Shown here in pieces: positions 2,496 to 62,335 of a stretch of DNA of 64,000 nt. The first letter of the stretch is position 1. Each line of letters begins with the position of its first letter. The position numbers and the translations under genes were made by a program. The stretch spans positions 56,290 through 120,289 of the forward strand of contig CAVGXP010000038.1 in the NCBI GenBank assembly GCA_963633165.1. Reading direction: 5' to 3'. The notes under the pieces were generated by a model. It was not told where the DNA came from, did not search any database, and saw nothing but the letters and a program-made list of their open reading frames with translations. The DNA comes from a bacterium. GTDB taxonomy: Bacteria > Bacillota_I > Bacilli_A > RFN20 > CAG-826.

Positions 2496-2582
2496 TTAGT
2501 AGATTAAAAGTAATATATTAGTAGTCATTATATATTTATATATAAAAGGCTAGGAAAGGAGTGAAGTATATACAGCAAAGAT

Positions 2583-4413: not shown

Positions 4414-5880
4414 ATGGCAACCAGCAAGAAACCAGCAAAATCCGCCAGCGCCAAAAAAGAAAGCAAGAAGGCTGTCAAACCCGTTTTGGAAGAAGAAGAG
4501 GACATCGAAGGCCTCGAAAGCATCAAAAAACGTTTCCTCAAGAAAGGGAAAGATGAAGGGGGCATCGACATCGGGGAAGTCCTTGACGCCGCCAACCACC
4601 TCGATCTTTCCGACGAAGACATCGAGTCTTTGATGGGCTTCTTCAAAGAGAACGGCATCAACGTCTCCGAAGATGAGGACATCAAAGAGGAAGAGGAGCC
4701 CGACGGCCCCAACCTCAGCGATCTTGAGAACGCCGAAAAGGATCTCGAGGAAGAAGACGCCGACGTCGCAGCTGAAGAGATGGGCGGAGGATCGGAGAAA
4801 GAAGAACTCGACGCCGTCAACGAGTTCAACCACGCCGCCATCGGCGAGGTCAAAGTCAACGACTCGGTCAAGATGTACCTCAAAGAGATCGGCAAAGTCG
4901 ATCTTCTCACCGCGGCGCAGGAAACCGAGCTTGCCAAGCGCATCGTCAAAGGCAACGAGGCCAAAGCCAAACTCGAACAGCTTTACTCTGAATACAAGAA
5001 GCGGGGCGGAGATGCCGAATACGCGGATTGGTACAAGAAGATTGACGTTTATGGCTCTTCCGATGAGTCCCGCCTCAAATACGCCCAGGAAGATGGCATC
5101 GGAAAAGGCGTCGACGGGCAGCAGGGGGCCAAAGACCAATTGATCACGGCCAACCTTCGTCTTGTCATCTCCATCGCCAAACACTACGTTGGCAGGGGCA
5201 TGCACTTCCTCGATCTCATCCAGGAAGGAAACATGGGTTTGATGAAGGCCGTCGAAAAATTCGATTACACCAAAGGGTTCAAATTCTCGACTTATGCGAC
5301 TTGGTGGATTCGTCAAGCCATCACCCGCGCCATCGCCGACCAAGCCAGAACCATCCGCATCCCGGTTCACATGGTCGAGACCATCAACAAAATCACCCGC
5401 GTTCAGCGCCAATTGACCCAGGAACTCGGCCGTGAGCCGACGGCGGAAGAAATCTCCGCCAAACTCGAAGGCGCCCAAAGCGCCGAAGCGATTCTCCGCA
5501 TCCAGCGCATCGCTCTTGAGCCCGTTTCTTTGGAAACTCCGATCGGAGAAGAGGACGACTCCAGGCTTGGCGACTTCCTTGAAGACAAAGAAACCCAATC
5601 TCCGGAAGAATACACGACCAAGAGCCTTCTCAAAGATGAGCTCTACGACATCATGAAGGACCTCACCGACCGCGAGGAGAAGGTCCTCAGGCTCCGCTAC
5701 GGCTTAGATGACAACCGTCCCCGCACCCTTGAGGAAGTCGGACGCGAATTCGGGGTCACTCGCGAACGCATCCGTCAGATCGAGGCCAAGGCCATCCGCA
5801 AACTTCGCCATCCCACCCGCGCCAAGAAGCTTGGCGATTATAGGGAAGCCAATTTCGGCGGGGAAGGCAAAAACCGCTAA
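4414..5880 (+). CDS. sigA: RNA polymerase primary sigma factor SigA/RpoD
   Basis: Acidic region 1.1, region 2 ([27 protein letters not shown]) and region 4 ([28 protein letters not shown]). A 22-bp gap after dnaG implies co-transcription. Confidence 0.95.
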
Positions 5881-14443: not shown

Positions 14444-14603
14444 GGCAACACAATATGAAAAAAGGAGTGGAAGAAGGGGTGAATAGAATTGTTTCTTGGC
14501 TGAAATTCCGACAATTTTATTTTTTAATGAATAAAATAGGCATTCTTTAAATTCATCAATAAAAACGTATATTTTTTGTCAATATAAAACGCCGATACAA
14601 TCG

Positions 14604-14643
14604 AAAAAAACCATTCTTCTTGATAATTGAAGAATGGTTTTCC
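14604..14643 (-). terminator. Bidirectional-looking terminator downstream of plsY
   Basis: AAAAAAA-CCATTCTTC-ttgataatt-GAAGAATGG-TTTTCC. On the minus strand the hairpin is followed by a T7 run, about 30 bp after the plsY stop. Confidence 0.6.
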
Positions 14644-14672
14644 ACAATAGGTTTTATTTAGCTAAATATCTA

Positions 14673-15428
14673 CTAAATATTTCCTAATTTATCAGTTGTC
14701 TTCGCTTCGGTTCCGGCTTTGATTCTTTTGATGTTTTCCTTATGCCTGAAGATAAGAATCGGGGCAATCAAGGTGTCCACCAAGGCGAATTCCCACCCTA
14801 GGTGAAGCATGGGGTAAAAGCCGAATGTCCAACTGAAGACCGCATCCCAGGAACAGGCGTTAGGGAAGACCGTGACGATGATCACAACGATCCACGCGGT
14901 TAAGGTTCCGGCGATCGAAGTGGAGATGGAGGCCAAGGAAACCATCTTCTTTTTGCCAGCGACGAAGAGGTATGTGAAGCCAGCGAAGCAGAACTCAACC
15001 CAACTGGTCATGATATTGGTCCCCATATAGCACGAGACGGCTTTTCCGCCTTTGAAATGAATGTAGATAGGCCAGCAGTGACCGATGGCGGCGGCTAGTC
15101 CTGCGAACCAATAATACAAAGGAGCGGCGTTATAGCCGTTTTCCCAAATCATGTATTGGTTTAGTCTACTAAAGGTCAACGTTGCCCAAATAGCGTAGAT
15201 GGGCAAAGCGGTTTTGATCATATCGAGGATGATGACCAAGACGCCTATCTTCTTTCCGAAAACGCGGCCAGAGTTGGTGCCGCCGGAGTTGTGGGAGTAG
15301 TAGTCCCTGGGGTCGCGGTGGAAGAAGATTCTTCCAATCAGGACACCGCTAGGAATCGAGCCAAAAAGGTAGCCGACTAAAAGGCTAGACAGGGCGACGC
15401 AAAGGTTTATCCAAACAATTTTTTCCAT
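14673..15428 (-). CDS. plsY: Glycerol-3-phosphate acyltransferase PlsY (acyl-phosphate dependent)
   Basis: Multi-TM protein of 251 aa with the N-terminal GSIPSG..HNSGGTNSGRVFG motif characteristic of PlsY. It is adjacent to parEC, as yneS is in B. subtilis. Confidence 0.85.
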   Translation of the reverse strand: MEKIVWINLCVALSSLLVGYLFGSIPSGVLIGRIFFHRDPRDYYSHNSGGTNSGRVFGKKIGVLVIILDMIKTALPIYAIWATLTFSRLNQYMIWENGYNAAPLYYWFAGLAAAIGHCWPIYIHFKGGKAVSCYMGTNIMTSWVEFCFAGFTYLFVAGKKKMVSLASISTSIAGTLTAWIVVIIVTVFPNACSWDAVFSWTFGFYPMLHLGWEFALVDTLIAPILIFRHKENIKRIKAGTEAKTTDKLGNI

Positions 15429-20116: not shown

Positions 20117-20292
20117 GTTATAGTAGATTATTAGTAGATAATTGGTTGAAAATATTTCGATTATATCGTTACTTTTTCTATTTTAACAAATTTAGTTTAT
20201 CTTTGGTTTCAAAGACTTTGTCACAAGGCCTCTTGCTATTTAGGCCCCGTTGAATCTAGTCACGCACGCGCGCAAGGCTTAAAATCAAATCT

Positions 20293-20817
20293 ATGAGGAA
20301 ACGCTGCATCCCCTTCGCTTTGGCCGATTCGATTTATGAGCTTACGCCTTCTTTCTTCAAGGACCTTGGCGTCTCCGTTTTGCTGATGGACCTCGATAAT
20401 ACCATGGCCACCTACGATTCTTCTTTGCCTGATGAGAGAACCATCAATTGGGCGAAAAAAATTGAGGATGCGGGGATTAAAATCATCATTTGTTCCAATA
20501 ATTCTGGGAAACGCGTTGGCAAGTTTGCCAGCGTTTTGGGCTGTGACCATGCCTGCTGGATGAAAAAGCCCTTCTCCGGGCCCATGAAAAAGCTCATCAA
20601 AGAAAAAGATTTGAACAAAGACAAGGTCCTTTTGATCGGGGATCAGATCATGACCGACGTCAAAGCGGGGAATGGAGCTGGCATCCGTTGCATTCTGACT
20701 GAACCTTTAGGCAAAGTCGAACCTTTATGGACGAAATTCAACCGTATGTTCGACAAACCACTTCGAAAGAAAATCAAAGATAAAAAGCTCGCAAAGAGCT
20801 GGAGGGATTGCATATGA
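20293..20817 (+). CDS. yqeG: YqeG-family HAD-IIIA phosphatase
   Basis: LLMDLDNTMATYD (DxD HAD motif) and KIIICSNNSGKRV; operon context yqeG-yqeH. Confidence 0.8.
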   Translation: MRKRCIPFALADSIYELTPSFFKDLGVSVLLMDLDNTMATYDSSLPDERTINWAKKIEDAGIKIIICSNNSGKRVGKFASVLGCDHACWMKKPFSGPMKKLIKEKDLNKDKVLLIGDQIMTDVKAGNGAGIRCILTEPLGKVEPLWTKFNRMFDKPLRKKIKDKKLAKSWRDCI

Positions 20818-22275: not shown

Positions 22276-23331
22276 ATGCAACGTTTCAGCCGTTTTTATT
22301 ATCTAAGCGATTTCGATCCCATATCCTCCAAAGACATCGCTTTCGGCGAAACAATAGCCGCGGAGTCAAGGGCAGAAGTCGTTTTCCTTCCTTCTCCAAA
22401 CGGTCTTTTTTCAGACTGCATTGCCACCTCTAGGCAAAGAGAAGATATGCTCTCTTTGGCTTTGAGTTCAAAAGAAGGCAAAACGTTATCACTTGATTGT
22501 TCCTTAATAGAATCCGCCGACGTTGCCTCTGATTTAAAGAAATTTAAAGAATCCCAAAAAAGCGAAGCCTGCTTCCTTATTAGCGAGGACAATCTCGCGA
22601 TTCTTGAAAAGAAAGGGCTAAGAGATCTGTTTGGGAAGGAGATTCGCGCTTTCCCCGTTAAGAGCGTCAACGAAGCAATGCTTGAAGATGGGCAAATCAG
22701 CCTTCCCCGTCCAAAAGAGGTCAGGAACCTTGTCGACCCCTGCCTAGAACCTTGCATAAGGGCTTATATCGAAAAGGAAAGACTCTATTACGTCGATAAA
22801 CTCGCCTCTTTCCTAAAAAGTGAACATCGCTTGCTTCATAGTCTATCGGTTGGGAATTTGTCTTATCAGATAGCTTGCTCCAACAAACTAGAGAATCCTA
22901 TAAGCGCCTATGTCGCCGGCGTTCTTCATGACTTAGGCAAACATTGCCCAAAAGAAGAAGAGAAGGCAATAATGGAGGAATTCTTTAGCGAATACGCGGA
23001 TTTCCCTTCTTGGACCTTCCATCAGTTCACGGGGGCATATCTAGCTAGGAAAGAATTTGGCATCCAAGACGAAGTCGTCCTAGAAGCGATAAGAAGCCAC
23101 GCGACAGGAAAGAAAGATATGTCCCCGTTGGGGAAAATCATTTACAGCGCGGATAAGATTGATCCGCTTCGTGGCTATGACTCTACATGGATGATAGACG
23201 CCTGCAAGAAAGATTATGAGGAAGGGTTCTTGACCGTGCTGAGGGAAAACCGGACGTACTTGACGGAAAAGGGATACCTGGTCGATAATCCGCTGACGAA
23301 AGAATGCTTCGAAATGTATTTAAAAGATTAA
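22276..23331 (+). CDS. yqeK: Fusion of a degenerate NadD-like domain (HxGH motif lost) with a YqeK HD-domain phosphohydrolase
   Basis: The N-terminal ~170 aa align along the full length of NaMN adenylyltransferase (VVFLPSPNG ~ WFMPNQIPPHK; REDMLSLAL ~ RVEMLKLAI). The catalytic GGTFDPPHNGH is replaced by YLSDFDPISSKD. The C-terminal half is a YqeK HD domain (YVAGVLHDLGKH). Confidence 0.75.
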   Translation: MQRFSRFYYLSDFDPISSKDIAFGETIAAESRAEVVFLPSPNGLFSDCIATSRQREDMLSLALSSKEGKTLSLDCSLIESADVASDLKKFKESQKSEACFLISEDNLAILEKKGLRDLFGKEIRAFPVKSVNEAMLEDGQISLPRPKEVRNLVDPCLEPCIRAYIEKERLYYVDKLASFLKSEHRLLHSLSVGNLSYQIACSNKLENPISAYVAGVLHDLGKHCPKEEEKAIMEEFFSEYADFPSWTFHQFTGAYLARKEFGIQDEVVLEAIRSHATGKKDMSPLGKIIYSADKIDPLRGYDSTWMIDACKKDYEEGFLTVLRENRTYLTEKGYLVDNPLTKECFEMYLKD

Positions 23332-23704: not shown

Positions 23705-23741
23705 AAGCGGTTGGCAGCTGTCCAACCGCTTTTATTTTTAG
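23705..23741 (+). terminator. Rho-independent terminator after rsfS
   Basis: AAGCGGTTGG-cagctgt-CCAACCGCTT (10-bp stem) followed by TTATTTTT. Confidence 0.7.
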
Positions 23742-24083
23742 TAGTTTTTGTCCTTTGAGAAAATCTTCGGAATTCCTTTAAAAATGGCTTCTTCGCATAA
23801 TGTCTATTATGTTAAGAAGTAATAAAAATAAATAGGTGTAACCGAATGTTTTCTAAATCAAAGTCTTCGCGTTTATTTTAATGAACTAAGTTCTCAACCT
23901 AAGTTTTCCACTAAATAAACATTACTAGAAAACTACTAATATACAAAATTAGCCTATGCTTTCATTTCTTCTTGTTCTCTTAAAATATGTTCTTTGTTTT
24001 ACCTAGGTGGGTTCATGATCCTTAGGTTTTTTATTCTTATTTATAATGTATCTACTTTATGTCAGCCAAAAAATCGTTTGAGG

Positions 24084-27180: not shown

Positions 27181-28065
27181 CTATTTCCTGGAGGAATAGC
27201 GGTCAAAGGCTTCCAAAATTCGCCTTGTGGAGACGTGAGTATAGATTTGCGTCGTCGATAAATGGGCGTGCCCAAGCATTTCCTGCACGGCGCGCAGCTC
27301 GGCTCCGTTTTCTAAAAGGTGAGTCGCGAAGCAATGCCGCAGGGTATGGGGCGAAACAACGGTGTCGATGCCGGCCTGGAGGGCGTATTTCTTCACCTGC
27401 ATGAAAAAATAATTACGGCTGATGGGCTCGCCACGGAGATTGAGGAAAATCTCCTTCTTTTTCCTTCCTTTGTTCTTGCTTCTGAAAGCGTGGATGTAAG
27501 ATTGCAACCACTCCAAGGCGAATGGAGAAATCGGGACGGTCCTTTGCTTGTTTCCTTTGCCTTTTTTGACGGTGATGAGACGGTTTTCGACATTGACTTG
27601 GCTTAATGTCAAGGCGCAGAGCTCAGAGACGCGGAGACCGGTCGCATACATTGTTTCAAGCATTGCTTTGTCTCTGCTTCCGGATTCTTTGCTGGTGTCG
27701 GGGGCGTCTAGCAATCTCTCAACTTCCTCGAAGGATAAAATCACGGGGAGGCTTCTTTCTTCTTTGGGGCGTTCGAGGTGATCTGGAGCGAAAGCAATGA
27801 TGCCCCTTCGGTTAAGGAAAAGATAGAAATTGAACAACGTCGAAAGCCTTCTAGCGATGCTAGCAGAACTCCTTTCTTTTTCTCCTTCCTTCAAAGCGAA
27901 ATCATAGAGATCGCTTTCAAGGAAATCCTCGGTCGTTTTCTTTTCGGGAAAGTCCTTCAAAAAGACGTTGAGGTCATCGCTATAATCCTTCACCGTGCTG
28001 TTGCTTAGGCCTTTTGAGGAGGTGAGATAGGTGAAATAATCCATGATGGCGTCTTCGATTTCCAT
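27181..28065 (-). CDS. xerD: Tyrosine recombinase XerD/XerC family (chromosome dimer resolution)
   Basis: N-terminal core-binding domain and C-terminal R..HxxR..Y catalytic set (HTLRHCFATHLLENGAELRAVQEMLGHAHLSTTQIYTHV). No phage genes flank it. The XerD versus XerC assignment is tentative. Confidence 0.6.
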   Translation of the reverse strand: MEIEDAIMDYFTYLTSSKGLSNSTVKDYSDDLNVFLKDFPEKKTTEDFLESDLYDFALKEGEKERSSASIARRLSTLFNFYLFLNRRGIIAFAPDHLERPKEERSLPVILSFEEVERLLDAPDTSKESGSRDKAMLETMYATGLRVSELCALTLSQVNVENRLITVKKGKGNKQRTVPISPFALEWLQSYIHAFRSKNKGRKKKEIFLNLRGEPISRNYFFMQVKKYALQAGIDTVVSPHTLRHCFATHLLENGAELRAVQEMLGHAHLSTTQIYTHVSTRRILEAFDRYSSRK

Positions 28066-29319: not shown

Positions 29320-31194
29320 TCAGTCGACCATCTTAAGAACCTGCTCGTAAGCTTGGTCTAGGCCGCAATTAGAATCTTCCAATTGATTGGCGAGGCTATC
29401 GTAAGGGATAAATTCGTTTTTGATGCTTAAAGAGACGACCTTGCCTTTATAGGAAAGTTTCATCAAGGAGGCAAGCAGGCTTTGGCAGAAACCTTCTTCG
29501 GTTCCATAAGGGTCATAAATGAGAATGGAATCGTAACAAAGGAGCTTCTTGACCTCGTTTTCCAAAACCGGATTCAAATAAACCGGATCGAAGAAAGAAC
29601 AGGCAATGTTGTTTTCATGCAGCTTCAAACGTAGCTGCTCGCCTAAAGGGCCAACGCCAACGACGACGGTTTTGGCGTTAGGATATTGGAAACCTCTCCA
29701 ACAAAACGAAGGCAAATAAGAGGATTTGATTTCTTCGGGCTTTGGTAGAGATACACCAGGATAACGAATCGCGAAAACGCCGTTGTAATCGAAGGATTTA
29801 TCAAACAAAGCCTTCGCGACATCCGGGGTTGAGGGCATGGAAACGACAACATGCGGAATCGATTTGAGGAAAGCTTCATCGTAGATGCCTTGATGGGTTT
29901 CGCCGTTTTTCCCCACCAGCCCAGCGCGATCGATAAGCAGCGTCAAATTGGCACCCATTCTGGCGCAGTCGTGGGAAATCTCGTCGTATGCGCGTTGCAT
30001 GAAACTCGAGTAAATAGAGACGATGGGCTTTTTACCAGTCAACGACAAGGCACCGGCGAAAGTCAAGGCGTGCTCCTCGGCGATTCCTACATCGAGGCAG
30101 CGGCCTTTGTAAGTCGCATAAGCGTGCTCAAGCTCAGAGCCTTTTAAAGTCGCGGGAGTAATCAAAACGGTTTCTTCGTCTTCCTTCATTTTATCTTCAA
30201 TGAAGGAAGCAAAAAGAGCGGACCAGCTGATGGAAGATGCGTTTTCCTCTTTCTCAAGCCCCTTGTTTAAGTCAAATGGAGGAACGGAATGGTAATCCCC
30301 GGTCTTGTCCGCTTCGGCTAAGGGATAGCCTTTCCCTTTAATGGTGTGGCAATGAATAAGCACGGATTTCGTCGTGTTTTTAGCCGATTTGAATGCTTTT
30401 TCGAGCGCTCTTTGGTTATGCCCGTCCACAGGCCCGATATAGGTGAAGCCCATGTTGTCGAACATCGTTATCGGAACAAGACGAGATTTCAGCGCTCTTT
30501 TAAAACGCGCGGAGAAATCGTAGATTTTTCGCCCCGCGACGGTTCTATATAAGACGCGCATATAGCCTTTTTTGGCTTTGTTGTAGATTTTGCCCGTGGA
30601 GATGCGACGGAAGAACTTCCCCGCGCCACCGATGGGTTTAGAAATCGACATGGCGTTGTCGTTTAGGATAACGATGACTTTGTTCGATCTTTCCCCAATG
30701 TTGTTCAACGCCTCGAAGCTCAAGCCATTGACGATGGAGGCGTCTCCGACGACGGCGATGACGTTGTAATTCTCTTTTCTGGAATCTCTAGCGTAGGCAA
30801 AAGCTTCCGCGGCCGACAAAGCCGTTGAACTATGGCCGGCATCATAGGGGTCGTAAATGGACTCTTTGCGGTTCTGGAACCCGTTTGTATGTCCTTTTTC
30901 GTTAAGATGCTCGAGGCTTCTGCCGGTTAGGAGCTTATGCGCGTAGCATTGGTGGCCGACGTCGAAGATAAGTTTGTCTTTTGGGAAGTCGAAAACCCGG
31001 TGCAACGCCAAGGTGATCTCGATGTCGCCGAGGTTGCTCGAAAGGTGCCCTCCATAGGTGGAGGTGATCCGAAGAATCTCTTCGCGAAGAGCCTTCGCAA
31101 GACGCTTCAAGTCTTTGTAGTCGAGCGTTTTTAAAAAAGATGGGTCTTTAATGTCATTTATATTAATTGTTTCGACGCCGTCTTTCTTTTTCAT
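29320..31194 (-). CDS. dxs: 1-deoxy-D-xylulose-5-phosphate synthase
   Basis: ThDP-binding GHLSSNLGDIEITLALH.. and DVGHQCYAHKLLTGR; 624 aa. No obvious SD; the ATG is directly preceded by TTTAGTAGTTTATTAGTAT. Confidence 0.9.
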   Translation of the reverse strand: MKKKDGVETININDIKDPSFLKTLDYKDLKRLAKALREEILRITSTYGGHLSSNLGDIEITLALHRVFDFPKDKLIFDVGHQCYAHKLLTGRSLEHLNEKGHTNGFQNRKESIYDPYDAGHSSTALSAAEAFAYARDSRKENYNVIAVVGDASIVNGLSFEALNNIGERSNKVIVILNDNAMSISKPIGGAGKFFRRISTGKIYNKAKKGYMRVLYRTVAGRKIYDFSARFKRALKSRLVPITMFDNMGFTYIGPVDGHNQRALEKAFKSAKNTTKSVLIHCHTIKGKGYPLAEADKTGDYHSVPPFDLNKGLEKEENASSISWSALFASFIEDKMKEDEETVLITPATLKGSELEHAYATYKGRCLDVGIAEEHALTFAGALSLTGKKPIVSIYSSFMQRAYDEISHDCARMGANLTLLIDRAGLVGKNGETHQGIYDEAFLKSIPHVVVSMPSTPDVAKALFDKSFDYNGVFAIRYPGVSLPKPEEIKSSYLPSFCWRGFQYPNAKTVVVGVGPLGEQLRLKLHENNIACSFFDPVYLNPVLENEVKKLLCYDSILIYDPYGTEEGFCQSLLASLMKLSYKGKVVSLSIKNEFIPYDSLANQLEDSNCGLDQAYEQVLKMVD

Positions 31195-31216
31195 ATACTA
31201 ATAAACTACTAAAATC

Positions 31217-31426
31217 TTACTTTAAGTCTTCAGCTCCAACGTTCATTTCGCCAATCTTTTTCTCGGCTTCTGAAAGTGCGTTTTGAAGTTCGGATATGAG
31301 CTTCTTACCTTCTTGATAAAGGCTCACCATCTCTTCCAAAGGCAAAGGATCGCCCTCGATTTTGGACACGATTTCGTTGAGGCGATTCAGCTTCTCCTCA
31401 AAGGTTTTTTGTTCTTTATCAGGCAT
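31217..31426 (-). CDS. xseB: Exodeoxyribonuclease VII small subunit
   Basis: 69-aa coiled-coil protein (FEEKLNRLNEIVSKIEGDPLPLEEMVSLYQEGKKL) directly downstream of xseA. Confidence 0.85.
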   Translation of the reverse strand: MPDKEQKTFEEKLNRLNEIVSKIEGDPLPLEEMVSLYQEGKKLISELQNALSEAEKKIGEMNVGAEDLK

Positions 31427-33223: not shown

Positions 33224-33250
33224 ATGAAAAAAGCCCGGAATACCCGGGCT
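33224..33250 (-). terminator. Rho-independent terminator after the asp23-family gene
   Basis: On the minus strand: AGCCCGGGTATTCCGGGCT followed by TTTTTT. Confidence 0.65.
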
Positions 33251-33259
33251 AGTAGATTA

Positions 33260-33601
33260 TTAAGCAAGGGACACGACGTGGACGTGGATCTCGTTGGGGA
33301 CGGCTTCGATCATCATCGAGAGGTTCGTCGCGATCTCTTTCTGTAATTTCAGGCAGATGTCTTTGACCTTGGAATCTCCTGGCAAGGCAACGTCGACGGA
33401 GATGCGGATCTTGCCTTCGCCAGTTATGGATATCCTTAGGGGGTTCTCGATCGTGAAGATGCGTTTCTTCCCCTTCTTTGGGCTAGGGGAAGCCCCAGTG
33501 AGGTTATAAACGGACCTTTCCACGATGGCCGCGATGGCCTTTTTGGAGATGGAGAGTTTCCCCAAAGAGGAATAATTGTTGATCGGGAGGTAATCGCTCA
33601 T
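33260..33601 (-). CDS. Asp23/Gls24-family (alkaline shock) protein
   Basis: 113-aa Asp23 family (ISKKAIAAIVERSVYNLTG...) upstream of nusB, like B. subtilis yqhY. Confidence 0.75.
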   Translation of the reverse strand: MSDYLPINNYSSLGKLSISKKAIAAIVERSVYNLTGASPSPKKGKKRIFTIENPLRISITGEGKIRISVDVALPGDSKVKDICLKLQKEIATNLSMMIEAVPNEIHVHVVSLA

Positions 33602-35576: not shown

Positions 35577-35636
35577 ATGTTTCTCCTTTGGATTATTAGT
35601 CGTTTTTAAGTTGTTTTTATATACAAAGTATATAAT

Positions 35637-56142: not shown

Positions 56143-58032
56143 TTAGGCGATTTTCTTTTCGATGTTTTCCTTGATGGAAGCAAAGAAATTCTTCGCGCCC
56201 TCTTCGCCGGTGCCGAAAGTTCCCCAGGAATCGTTAGCGGCTCCTTGGGAAATGGTGGCGCCGATGCTGCCCATCGGGGTCCAGAAGTTGTCGTTGACGT
56301 TGGGGGCTTGGGCATGAGTATGGCCAGCAGCCATCATCTCAGCGATCTGACCGACGAACGGTAACGCTTTGACGTCAGCGTTATCGGCGACGGTGAGGTT
56401 GGACGGACCATGGCCGAGGGCTTTGGCACGAGCAAGCTGAACTTCGGGGCTGGTGGCGTATTCGCAGAAGCTCTTGGCTAGTTCGGTCTTCGCAGAGGAC
56501 AAGCCGGCCTTGACGGACATGAACTTATAGCCGTTGAAGGTATGAAGAGCCTTCTCTTCGCCGTCGATGGTCATCGAAGGAAGGACGGTGTAACCGAGGT
56601 TATCGCCGATTTGGGCTTTAAGGGAGGCGTAGTCGTTCCAAAGGATGCAAGCGCCGATCGTTTTGTCCTTGAAGCCTTTTTCGATAACACCATTGTCGGA
56701 ACTATAGACAAGGGTCGTTCCGCCATAGGTCTTATATTGGTTCATAAGGGCAACGCCGGCTTTGGCGGCAGCGTCGCTTTCGAAGTTGGAAACGATGTTG
56801 CCATCCGCGTCGAGGTGGAAGTCGATGCCGTTGGCCCAGAACGGTGCGGGGCTATACCAGCCATTGGCCATATCCCAGTAGACTTTCACGTTTTTCTGAT
56901 TAGCTTCGGCGAGGAGATCGTCCATGCTCTCGACGGTTTCGGGGTTGGTGAAGATTTCCTTGTTGTAGAAGAGGATGTATCCGTTGTCACCACGATAAGG
57001 ATAGCCGTAGAGGGTTCCATCAAGCGACCCAGCGGTCACGGCGTTCTCGCCATCGGAGACTTTGATGGCGGCTTGTTCGCTATCCTCAAGAGAAGTTAGA
57101 AGCTTGCTGTTGGCCGCGGAGCGGATGTTGTCGTCGGCAATGCACATGATGTCGGCGGCGGTGTCAAGGTCTTTGGCAAGCTCGGTGCGGACGTCGCCTT
57201 CGCCGAGGTTGGCTTTGATGGTGATCTTTCCCTTGAAATCGCTGTGGGCTTTCTTATAGCCCTCAATGACGGTGTTGGTGATGAAATCGGTGTCGGTGGT
57301 CGGGACCCAAAGAGTCAAATCGGTCTCCGCTTCGGCTTCTTCGACGGTGACGGTGAATTTGGCTTCGACGTCGCCGGCCTTGGCGATGATGTCGGTGGTT
57401 CCTTCGCCGACGGCGGTCCAAACGGCGGCTTTGTCGTTAGCAGAATCCGCGGCGACGGTGGCGACAGTGGTATCTTTAGAAGACCAGCTGACTTTGCCGC
57501 TCACGCCGATGGAAGTGAGGGTGAGGTCGCCGGTTTTGCCGACCATTGCTTTGGCTTTGCCATCGACTTTGAAAACGTTTTTAACGAAGTCGCCCTTTGC
57601 GTGGCCACCATCGTCTTTTTCGCCGTTTTCAACGAAATACCAAGTGCCAACGGCTTCGGGGAATGCGAGGTTCGCGGTTTGGCCATCGCTGCCGTTGAAG
57701 ATAATGGTATCGCCGGCGGCGTCGGTGACGGTAACCGTGAGGGTATTCCAACCTTCTTCGGTGGAAGCGGTCAAAGCGGTTCCAGGCCATGAGCCAAGTT
57801 TTTCGCCATCGTTTCCGAACATGTAGGCGTTGCCATAGGCGCTAGGAACGTTAAAGACGAAATCGCCCGCGATCTTTTCGTCGGTCTTGGAGGTGCTGTC
57901 CTGCTTGGATTGCGAAGCGCTGGTGCTATCCGAAGCCTTGGAGGATTCAGTCTGCCCCCCCGTCGGCGAGCAGGCGGCCAAGGCGAGGAAGCCGAGGGCT
58001 AACGCGCAGACAGTAAGTTTTTTGTTAATCAT
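56143..58032 (-). CDS. Lipoprotein: family-1 extracellular solute-binding protein (maltodextrin-type) with N-terminal CBM-like and Big_2 domains
   Basis: Lipobox LALAAC. An N-terminal aromatic/Gly-rich ~120-aa module is followed by a Big_2 domain (KVSWSSKDTTVATVAA..DIIAKAGDVEAKFTVTV) and a ~400-aa family-1 binding-protein core. 629 aa. Confidence 0.75.
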   Translation of the reverse strand: MINKKLTVCALALGFLALAACSPTGGQTESSKASDSTSASQSKQDSTSKTDEKIAGDFVFNVPSAYGNAYMFGNDGEKLGSWPGTALTASTEEGWNTLTVTVTDAAGDTIIFNGSDGQTANLAFPEAVGTWYFVENGEKDDGGHAKGDFVKNVFKVDGKAKAMVGKTGDLTLTSIGVSGKVSWSSKDTTVATVAADSANDKAAVWTAVGEGTTDIIAKAGDVEAKFTVTVEEAEAETDLTLWVPTTDTDFITNTVIEGYKKAHSDFKGKITIKANLGEGDVRTELAKDLDTAADIMCIADDNIRSAANSKLLTSLEDSEQAAIKVSDGENAVTAGSLDGTLYGYPYRGDNGYILFYNKEIFTNPETVESMDDLLAEANQKNVKVYWDMANGWYSPAPFWANGIDFHLDADGNIVSNFESDAAAKAGVALMNQYKTYGGTTLVYSSDNGVIEKGFKDKTIGACILWNDYASLKAQIGDNLGYTVLPSMTIDGEEKALHTFNGYKFMSVKAGLSSAKTELAKSFCEYATSPEVQLARAKALGHGPSNLTVADNADVKALPFVGQIAEMMAAGHTHAQAPNVNDNFWTPMGSIGATISQGAANDSWGTFGTGEEGAKNFFASIKENIEKKIA

Positions 58033-61999: not shown

Positions 62000-62335
62000 G
62001 CTTGTTTTCCTCCTGTTTCCGGCTTTTTATAGACTCGCTAGGAAGGCGGGAAATTTCCACTTAAGCCTTTTTTAGGCGGTTGCACCCCAAAAGCCAGGAG
62101 GTTACAACGGGGTTATATTATGCGCTTTTCCCTTTAAAGGGAAGCCTTTTTTGAGCGAGTTTCGCCCTCGCTATACAAGGTTTTGCATCAGCGCGAATTT
62201 TAGGGCATAGGCCATTAAAGGAAAAGAGTTTCATTAACGCCAAAAATCCGGCCTTTATCGGTCTTTTCTCCGTTTTCAAAGGTCATAACTATGCAATAGA
62301 AACCGGCTTATTCAACAGAGGATTAATGCATGTGT
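62000..62335 (-). promoter_or_regulatory. Structured 5' leader of the rplU-prp-rpmA operon (candidate L21 leader)
   Basis: 335-bp non-coding region with several hairpins, including a perfect 16-bp palindrome TTCCCTTTAAAGGGAA. Firmicutes rplU operons commonly carry the L21 leader RNA; I did not verify the consensus. Confidence 0.3.

Follow-up and report, generated by a model that had tools for sequence, protein, structure and literature searches.

Genomic context and related loci

The window analysed in this study is the whole stretch of 64,000 nucleotides at positions 56,290 to 120,289 (forward strand) of contig CAVGXP010000038.1, assembly GCA_963633165.1, from a bacterium of the lineage RFN20 (CAG-826) in the Bacilli. 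The element in question is a short intergenic word, TAGTAG, which is repeated there in tandem arrays and lies on both sides of a dif site, the site of XerC and XerD. The window is a gene-dense segment, with a GC content of 0.51 in coding DNA (about 0.65 at third codon positions) and only 3.0 kb of intergenic DNA, at 0.39 GC. The gene names given by the first-pass annotation, which was made from the sequence alone, were upheld by Pfam, NCBIfam and annotated relatives (glyQS, dnaG, plsY, parC, yqeG, rsfS, xseB, dxs and asp23). The genetic code is standard, with 22 TAA, 19 TGA and six TAG stop codons.

The closest YqeH proteins belong to metagenome-assembled genomes (MAGs) of uncultured "Bacilli/Mollicutes/Firmicutes bacterium". 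Relatives were collected by scanning a genome collection with a YqeH alignment, and 57 syntenic loci were obtained. The named relatives among them were Candidatus Enteromonas, Alloenteromonas and Onthovivens, and the farther loci belonged to Erysipelotrichales, Izemoplasmatales and related groups. The clade set consisted of the window and loci L001 to L044 (uncultured gut Bacilli with YqeH identity of 37-86% and GC content of 26-61%), and 14 loci, L045 to L058, served as the outgroup. The closest relative was L001, whose YqeH is 86% identical. DNA beyond the ends of the window was taken from related genomes through protein searches; to the right these were L179, L181 and L182.

Phased TAGTAG arrays in intergenic DNA

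There were 12 copies of TAGTAG in the window on both strands, and nine of them lie in or touch intergenic DNA (starts at 2497, 2519, 20121, 20132, 23739 and 33250 on the plus strand and at 14670, 23933 and 31206 on the minus strand). The bare hexamer was found three times inside genes (15166 minus, 15298 plus and 43580 plus), each time without the extended flanking pattern. So the claim of the first-pass annotation that the word occurs only in intergenic DNA is true for the extended motif but not for the bare hexamer. All the motif sites that it listed are present, and the 13-mer TAGTAGATTATTA, which it reported as occurring twice exactly, does so at 20121 and 33250. The site that it placed after the plsY stop needs correction, as the first TAG of the motif is itself the plsY stop codon.

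The nine intergenic copies compare with 0.8-2.1 expected from Markov models of orders 0-2 of the window's own intergenic DNA, about a 9-fold excess, and TAGTAG ranks first among the over-represented intergenic hexamers of the window, above Shine-Dalgarno words. The longer word TTAGTAGWTT had four matches against 0.10 expected from whole-window shuffles. The same enrichment is present across the clade: with a simple ORF mask, intergenic TAGTAG exceeded expectation about 8-10 times in the window and L001 to L044, it was also the top over-represented hexamer in 127 kb of intergenic DNA of the 44 relatives, and TAGTAGT occurred 105 times against 4.0 expected in this pooled DNA (both strands, z about 47). 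The enrichment was absent from 13 of the 14 outgroup loci, L048 being the exception; the top words of outgroup intergenic DNA were AGGAGG and TATAAT, without a TAGTAG signal. A full-text literature search on TAGTAG binding sites gave nothing relevant, and no description of the motif was found.

The anatomy of the arrays was examined with 145 intergenic instances aligned on TAGTAG. The logo gave the consensus wAGTA-nnnaAT-TAGTAG-TTTTtT-AGTAw, an element of about 30 bp. Another nAGTA was located at +11 from TAGTAG in 56 of the 145 instances and at -11 in 48; distances of 10 and 12 had a single instance each, and lesser peaks were seen at 22 and 33. Because these offsets peak at exactly 11 bp on either side, the unit is TTAGTA followed by a 5-bp T-rich spacer, arranged head to tail in 2-5 copies with a rigid 11-bp period. 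The arrays are direct repeats, not palindromic and without dyad symmetry. RNA folding of the arrays gave -1.8 to -5.8 kcal/mol with z-scores mostly near 0 and no consistent structure. This phasing was missed in the first-pass annotation, as were the clade-wide conservation and the dif site between two of the arrays.

Arrays were found in about ten orthologous intergenic spacers, the outermost about 31 kb to the left and 12 kb to the right of dif, and they are kept across the whole range of YqeH identity and GC content of the clade set. L001 keeps the motif at the plsY stop, 3' of the rsfS terminator, at the second site of that spacer and in the xseB-dxs gap. The exact 17-mer was also used to scan metagenomes without restriction to any locus. 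Most matches were due to chance in AT-rich unrelated organisms, and Pfam placed several of them in other lineages (for example, one encoding LptD). All the matches that could be assigned to the clade were at known sites: six at the dif-right array, three at tkt, three at dxs and one at plsY. It means that, in the DNA examined, the arrays are site-specific and locally clustered.

The simplest explanation would be that nothing specific is present, and that TAGTAG is an AT-rich word produced by the composition of intergenic DNA, or what is left of a mobile repeat or a deletion. The low GC content of intergenic DNA relative to genes is matched with this explanation, and so is the selection against TAG words in reading frames. 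But composition fails to account for the motif, because the Markov models of intergenic DNA predict only the small numbers given above, and the exact 11-bp phasing is left without a cause. A repeat footprint or deletion scar, one of three roles put forward at first, does not agree with the same orthologous positions being kept over an order-level clade, with the lack of hairpin potential, or with the lack of enrichment in 13 of 14 outgroup loci. Arrays are also missing from equally AT-rich spacers farther from dif. We regard this explanation as already refuted, with hardly any probability left to it.

Long TAGTAG arrays of 3-10 units were also seen on metagenome contigs of uncertain affiliation (L132, 4168-4195; L163, 2630-2750; L129, 240-275; L125, 11338-11365). 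L132 has 58% GC, and its array is upstream of a NuoF-like gene, with a formate-dehydrogenase-like gene farther downstream. The TAGTAG motif, or a look-alike, may therefore exist outside the studied clade.

The dif site and its flanking arrays

The spacer between rsfS and an ABC permease gene contained four features:

23738 to 23749, plus strand: the dif-left unit, TTAGTAGTTTTT, directly 3' of the rsfS terminator; its TAGTAG starts 53 bp before 23792
23790 to 23817, plus strand: the dif site for XerC and XerD, TCTTCGCATAA-TGTCTA-TTATGTTAAGA
23903 to 23911, minus strand: a DnaA-box-like box, GTGGAAAAC (GTTTTCCAC on the plus strand), between dif and the dif-right array; clade consensus GTTWTCCAC
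23922 to 23949, minus strand: the dif-right array, TGTATA, N5, TAGTAG (23938-23933), N5 and TAGTAA, inverted relative to the dif-left unit

The dif sequence has 28 bp, with 11-bp arms in imperfect inverted repeat and a 6-bp centre. It matches E. coli dif, GGTGCGCATAA-TGTATA-TTATGTTAAAT (GGTGCGCATAATGTATATTATGTTAAAT), and starts like the B. subtilis site, which begins with ACTTCC (PMC3025954). The block is identical in the window and L001, and dif was found at the same place, 3' of rsfS, in 39 of the 45 clade sequences (the window and 38 loci) and in L048. Across these 40 loci the two arms hardly vary but the bases of the centre do, which is the signature of an Xer core site. One copy is present in the window, and a Xer recombinase gene, xerD (27181-28065), lies 3.4 kb away. 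No extra XerD half-sites of the XDS type were found in the window.

Transcription converges on dif: the genes to the left are on the plus strand, bar a few, and those to the right are all on the minus strand. We take the dif locus to be the presumed replication terminus. The GC skew flips at dif (about 23.8 kb) with the sign that is usual for origins, but this is caused by a preference for C-ending codons (third-position GC skew -0.31), so that the coding strand has more C than G on either strand. Because the skew follows codon usage and gene orientation, it is unusable for orienting replication in this lineage, and its minimum at about 22 kb was rejected as an origin for the same reason. DnaA boxes were not enriched over the whole window.

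The geometry of the spacer is fixed. The dif-right array is located at +141 bp from dif, plus or minus one 11-bp unit, in 36 of 39 loci, and the intervening stretch of about 85 bp is kept in length but not in sequence. In the window the inverted arrays on the two sides of dif are 194 bp apart (TAGTAG at 23739, plus, and at 23933, minus). The box GTTWTCCAC contains a conserved 8-mer and agrees with the DnaA-box consensus at eight of nine positions; the ninth base varies. In the seven loci inspected, intergenic GTGGAWAM boxes occurred only beside arrays.

Arrays also become rarer with distance from dif. Their density per kb of intergenic DNA was 1.96 within -10 to +12 kb of dif and 0.84 farther left (-34 to -10 kb). 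To the right, no array was found in 86 kb with 4.6 kb of intergenic DNA (the window from 36 to 64 kb, plus L179, L181 and L182), and the matrix gave no weak hits there either. With the density seen near dif, this stretch should have contained nine (Poisson P about 1e-4, which overstates the significance because the density statistics treat orthologous regions of related genomes as independent).

Arrays beside dif-like sites in phage contigs

Viral contigs with the exact 17-mer were mostly chance matches. Only two had at least two array clusters, L191 and L193, and both have a dif-like site of the clade type beside an array. L191 (IMG/VR UViG 3300021254_001275) is a microvirus of complete size, 5.8 kb, encoding a rolling-circle Rep and a 519-aa capsid protein. 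In its non-coding region (4560-4900) are TTAGTAGTTTTTTAGTAG, four (G)TTTTCCAC boxes and, 21 bp from ACTTCGCGTAATTGTCATTATGTTAAC, a second array. From this arrangement L191 is probably a temperate microvirus, with the dif of these Bacilli as its integration site. The other contig, L193, is a fragment of a tailed phage, in which 50-60 bp separate an array from CTATAATGTGTAATATGTTAAC. About 100 other viral contigs with dif-like cores, presumably those of other hosts, had no arrays, and a scan for an array abutting the box (TAGTAGTTTTCCAC) gave nothing beyond L191. As far as their sequences tell, the phages link arrays, boxes and Xer-type sites in an independent replicon.

Arrays at gene boundaries

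Outside the dif spacer the following sites were identified, from left to right:

About 31 kb left of dif, plus strand: a site class upstream of a radical-SAM gene, of moderate strength, in relatives' DNA beyond the window
2496 to 2524, plus strand: the glyQS-dnaG array of three units with an 11-bp period, TTAGTAG (2496-2502), aAAGTAA (2507-2513) and TTAGTAG (2518-2524)
Left of dif, plus strand: a site class at the fakA 3' end, in some genomes
14638 to 14646, minus strand: a DnaA-box-like box by the plsY array, TGTGGAAAA, complement of TTTTCCACA
14659 to 14686, minus strand: the plsY 3' array, TAGGAA, N5, TAGTAG (14675-14670), N5 and TAGCTA, from the position weight matrix (PWM) and alignment with L001
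20114 to 20148, plus strand: the parC-yqeG array of four units with an 11-bp period, AAGTTA, TAGTAG (20121), TAGTAG (20132) and TGGTTG (20143)
31195 to 31222, minus strand: the xseB-dxs array of three units, AAGTAA, TAGTAG (31211-31206) and TAGTAT
33250 to 33262, plus strand: a single TAGTAG, past the stop of asp23 but before the terminator of this gene, and antisense to its transcript; weak and isolated, with a PWM score below 12
35586 to 35615, plus strand: the degenerate aspS-tkt array, TTAGTCGTTTTTAAGTTG, with a PWM score of 15.7, just upstream of the tkt start region and antisense to the genes

Several of these have clear counterparts in relatives. The plsY 3' array corresponds to about 35 PWM hits on the minus strand at -9.5 to -9 kb from dif across clade loci, and the parC-yqeG array to orthologous plus-strand hits at about -4 kb. 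The aspS-tkt spacer has strong arrays in L062, L170 and L112 but a weak one in the window. In the plsY box the GTGG core starts 30 nt downstream of the TAGTAG start, and the box forms the 5' side of the plsY terminator stem.

In the xseB-dxs gap the first unit holds the xseB stop codon TAA and the last abuts the dxs ATG at 31194. Orthologous arrays were present in L001, L003, L007 to L011, L017 to L019, L032, L036, L040, L062, L077 and L170. It had been claimed that dxs has no Shine-Dalgarno sequence and that the motif fills the gap before it, and we confirmed this: the ATG is 22 nt after the xseB stop. Many relatives likewise have dxs without a Shine-Dalgarno sequence directly after the array, and its translation may proceed by re-initiation or through an AU-rich leader. 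The array was also considered as the promoter of a leaderless dxs mRNA, but its spacing to the ATG does not suit a -10 element.

The gap before dxs is part of the case for a signal in RNA, in which the motif would act in 3' untranslated regions or between cistrons as backup stops in several frames, as a site for an RNA-binding protein or RNase, or as an AU-rich platform at dxs. In line with this, 126 of 143 instances are behind a co-oriented gene and many begin at most 5 nt from its stop, the plsY stop is the motif's own first TAG, as is that of the portal gene in phage L193, and the 11-nt period shifts TAG through all three reading frames. Since these instances reduce to about ten sites with orthologues in the clade, the orientation bias shrinks to 7-8 of 10 site classes, which is not significant. 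At tkt and asp23 the motif is antisense, and TAGTAG falls at random in the reading frame of the preceding ORF. A constant distance to a DNA recombination site and a precise phasing with the helix are features that belong to DNA. A backup tandem stop or termination context had been proposed at first and is not matched with our data: a second stop falls in frame in 18 of 59 cases, as by chance, the code is standard, and intrinsic terminators follow the motif in 21% of cases against 20% after any stop codon. With no stable hairpin and terminators at this baseline rate, an intrinsic terminator or REP-like palindrome was rejected too. We consider a role in RNA improbable.

The third role first proposed, a putative binding site for a global regulator or nucleoid protein, still stands, and in the first of these forms it gives the main rival explanation, namely that a global transcription factor, such as one of the OmpR/PhoB type, uses the arrays as operators or activator sites and that their proximity to dif is accidental. 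Boxes of PhoB/PhoP, WalR and CiaR have the architecture of tandem hexamers with a 5-bp spacer. The arrays share with the Pho box, the B. subtilis PhoP box (TT[A/T/C]A[C/T]A-N5) and the WalR box (TGTWAH-N5-TGTWAH) the hexamer repeats, the A/T-rich 5-bp spacer and the strict 11-bp period, in runs of 2-5 units, and so have the tandem hexamers at 10-11 bp centre to centre that define such boxes. TTAGTA agrees at five of six positions with the B. subtilis PhoP half-site, TT[A/T/C]A[C/T]A. Placement at a -35 position is possible at dnaG, where the last TTAGTA is 17 bp upstream of TATAAA (2541-2546); L184 has the same array with TTAGTA-17-TATAAA, and L183 has CTAGTA and TATAAG with the same 17-bp spacer, as read from the sequences. 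The dxs and tkt starts are abutted by arrays, and in phage L193 an array lies between the portal and scaffold genes and is followed by TATAAT.

On the other side, the hexamer differs from those of the known boxes, and the arrays are mostly off promoters and clustered around dif. They are not at -35 positions at plsY 3', dif-left or dif-right, which are convergent gene ends, and the best-conserved arrays (plsY, and the permease by dif) are at such 3' ends with nothing downstream to regulate. No conserved -10 element at a fixed distance was seen in the logo of 145 instances, and scans for sigma-70-type promoters and terminators showed no excess and no consistent tie to the motif. Canonical TTGACA/TATAAT-like promoters elsewhere in the window carry no arrays, so the array was rejected as a general -35 or promoter element, and only the dnaG site fits. 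The lack of arrays in the 4.6 kb of rightward intergenic DNA, which is rich in promoters, and the fixed distance to dif over deep divergence would also be left unexplained. We regard the regulator as a serious possibility, though not a probable one.

The orientations of the arrays bear on two further explanations. One is that they are polar barriers to replication forks, a third type of Ter site, and would trap forks around dif. The known fork traps have dif between their innermost ter sites, and the sites of RTP are composite and asymmetric (PMC10331603). The arrays resemble RTP-Ter of Bacillus and Tus-Ter of enterobacteria in that they are composite, asymmetric and intergenic, cluster near the terminus, and enclose dif within an innermost inverted pair. 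The site classes that point to dif are the radical-SAM upstream, glyQS-dnaG, fakA 3', parC-yqeG and dif-left sites on the plus strand and the dif-right and xseB-dxs arrays on the minus strand. These are 7 of 10 classes, which is not significant. Polarity is mixed on each side of dif, as plsY 3' (left, minus), the best-conserved outer array, and tkt and asp23 (right, plus) are wrongly oriented and would halt forks short of dif under either polarity. Repeat spacing and sequence differ from known Ter sites, and neither an RTP nor a Tus homologue was seen in the sequence examined. A fork trap is in our opinion quite improbable.

The other is that the arrays steer a translocase of the FtsK/SpoIIIE type to dif, like KOPS or SRS. 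Polar words aimed at dif from either side and densest beside it would suit such guidance. KOPS and SRS are single 8-mers along both chromosome arms, mostly inside genes, while the arrays are elements of about 30 bp with 11-bp phasing, exclusively intergenic and absent beyond about 30 kb. With none at +12 to +50 kb and an orientation toward dif in only 7 of 10 classes, they were not assigned to KOPS or SRS, and we judge translocase guidance very improbable.

Some observations were made on the genes beside the arrays. The ORF start of dnaG is TTG at 2583, about 20 nt after a good Shine-Dalgarno sequence (GGAAAGGAG; 2551-2585), and an ATA at 2568, in the same frame, stands at the proper distance. 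The start codon of dnaG is therefore uncertain. yqeG has no Shine-Dalgarno sequence either, and a promoter-like site, TAGTCA-17-TAAAAT (20257-20295), ends 7 nt before its ATG; TAAAAT is kept in L001. This arrangement suggests that the yqeG mRNA is leaderless. In the convergent fakA-plsY spacer (14530-14615, and also in L001 to L044) a conserved block with GTTTTTRATTGACA and a -35-like TTGACA, without a conserved -10, stands downstream of the plsY terminator. Judged by its sequence, this block may serve as the promoter of a small RNA or be a further site of protein binding.

Possible role of the arrays at the terminus

We tentatively favour the view that the arrays are phased binding sites for a putative protein tied to the terminus and dif, serving as an accessory, architectural or boundary element. 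A role at dif is favoured because of the local clustering, the fixed geometry and the phage sites. We infer cooperative protein binding, and its possible effect, from the one-turn phasing, the asymmetric units, the conservation of position but not of flanks, the partner box and the fixed distance to dif. As 11 bp is about one helical turn, successive units would be exposed on one face of the duplex, and a sequence-specific DNA-binding protein found in this order of Bacilli could bind them cooperatively. The arrays point at dif from both sides, the right one at a fixed distance and paired with GTTWTCCAC, so the bound protein might build a nucleoprotein structure that cooperates with the machinery of XerCD and dif and with the terminus region, or sets their limits. 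Arrays over a gene start or promoter (dnaG, dxs, tkt) may affect transcription as well. The role at dif and that of a regulator of the OmpR/PhoB type are not mutually exclusive.

Several points weigh against a role at dif. Only close relatives keep the dif-left unit, which reads TTAGTAG, TTAGTCG or TTAGTTG in them. The distal arrays (glyQS-dnaG, parC-yqeG, xseB-dxs, aspS-tkt and plsY 3') are kilobases from dif and at gene boundaries, and therefore an ordinary regulon fits too. In L193 the second array coincides with the stop of the portal gene and has no dif-like site nearby, suggesting that it acts in gene expression, and the phage evidence consists of only two contigs. No DNA-binding gene stands consistently beside dif, as rtp does by its Ter sites; the neighbour is usually the ABC permease. 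The clustering was seen in a sample of about 150 kb around one locus per lineage, from genomes of about 1-2 Mb, and the non-independence of orthologous regions noted above also counts here.

Among known systems, the accessory sequences of Xer recombination (cer and psi, with ArgR/ArcA and PepA) have conserved motifs for protein binding at a fixed distance of about 50-180 bp from the XerC/XerD core. The arrays at +141 plus or minus 11 bp from dif, and those beside the clade-type, attP-like sites of phages, are similar in this respect. At psi, ArcA recognises direct repeats with an 11-bp spacing, and elsewhere it controls a regulon of the ordinary kind; ArgR too is a regulator with its own regulon. 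An accessory protein like ArcA would explain the arrays away from dif. The differences are that known accessory sequences belong to plasmid sites and are on the XerC side only, but here arrays are on both sides and the XerD-side module is the better conserved; that chromosomal dif normally needs FtsK and not accessory DNA; and that the arrays show no site consensus of ArgR, ArcA or PepA.

Like the sites of MatP (matS) and of XerD (XDS), the arrays are a short motif that lies around dif and only near the terminus, where it would mark the region for a dedicated protein. The matS site, however, is palindromic over 13 bp, and XDS is similar to the XerD half-site of dif; the arrays are direct repeats without dyad symmetry, and the window holds no extra half-sites. 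They also resemble iterons and other origin repeats, being helically phased direct repeats beside a DnaA-box-like TTWTCCAC. They differ in that the ninth base of the box is not conserved and that the locus is, on our reading of it, a terminus and not an origin. DnaA-trios have the consensus TAG (5'-3'), with at least three contiguous 3'-GAT-5' within 0-16 bp of a DnaA box (PMC8287927). The arrays were rejected as such a basal unwinding element, because only two contiguous trios are present, about 21 bp from the box, and the 11-bp period breaks the 3-nt register. The motif could be assigned to none of the known terminus systems, and its familiar kind is that of phased protein-binding repeats and terminus-associated sites.

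A more specific form of the role at dif, which we hold to be unlikely, is that the arrays and GTTWTCCAC are the cis elements of a hitherto unseen terminus system, whose dedicated protein polymerises on the 11-bp repeats around dif. Such a system would control Xer recombination, independently of FtsK or with it, or would organise or insulate the terminus, and integrating phages would copy the arrays beside their dif-like attachment sites.

Systems that mark or organise the terminus are known from a few model lineages (Tus-Ter, RTP-Ter, MatP-matS and XerD-XDS). A conserved and geometrically fixed motif around dif is a handle for another terminus system in widespread uncultured gut Bacilli; if the regulator explanation is true, the motif marks out which genes belong to the regulon of a major transcription factor, so far uncharacterised, in these organisms. 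In practice, the motif together with dif can locate the terminus in fragmented MAGs, and can flag phages that probably integrate at dif in this clade.

Other features of the window

No tRNA was found in the window, and an Rfam scan matched only an L21 leader (RF00559, 38.4 bits; 62025-62091, minus strand) upstream of rplU-ysxB-rpmA, the large spacers being empty. SigA (4414-5880) has 488 aa, with a long N-terminal extension. A second RpoD-like sigma factor is encoded directly 3' of sigA in some relatives (L184, 14768-16042; L185, 14745-15680) but not in the window.

An ORF of 351 aa at 22276-23331 stands where nadD plus yqeK would be expected. A genome scan with the NadD/YqeK protein as query gave no match. 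Pfam identified only the HD domain of YqeK, at residues 187-297, and the N-terminal half of the protein may be a divergent NadD fused to YqeK.

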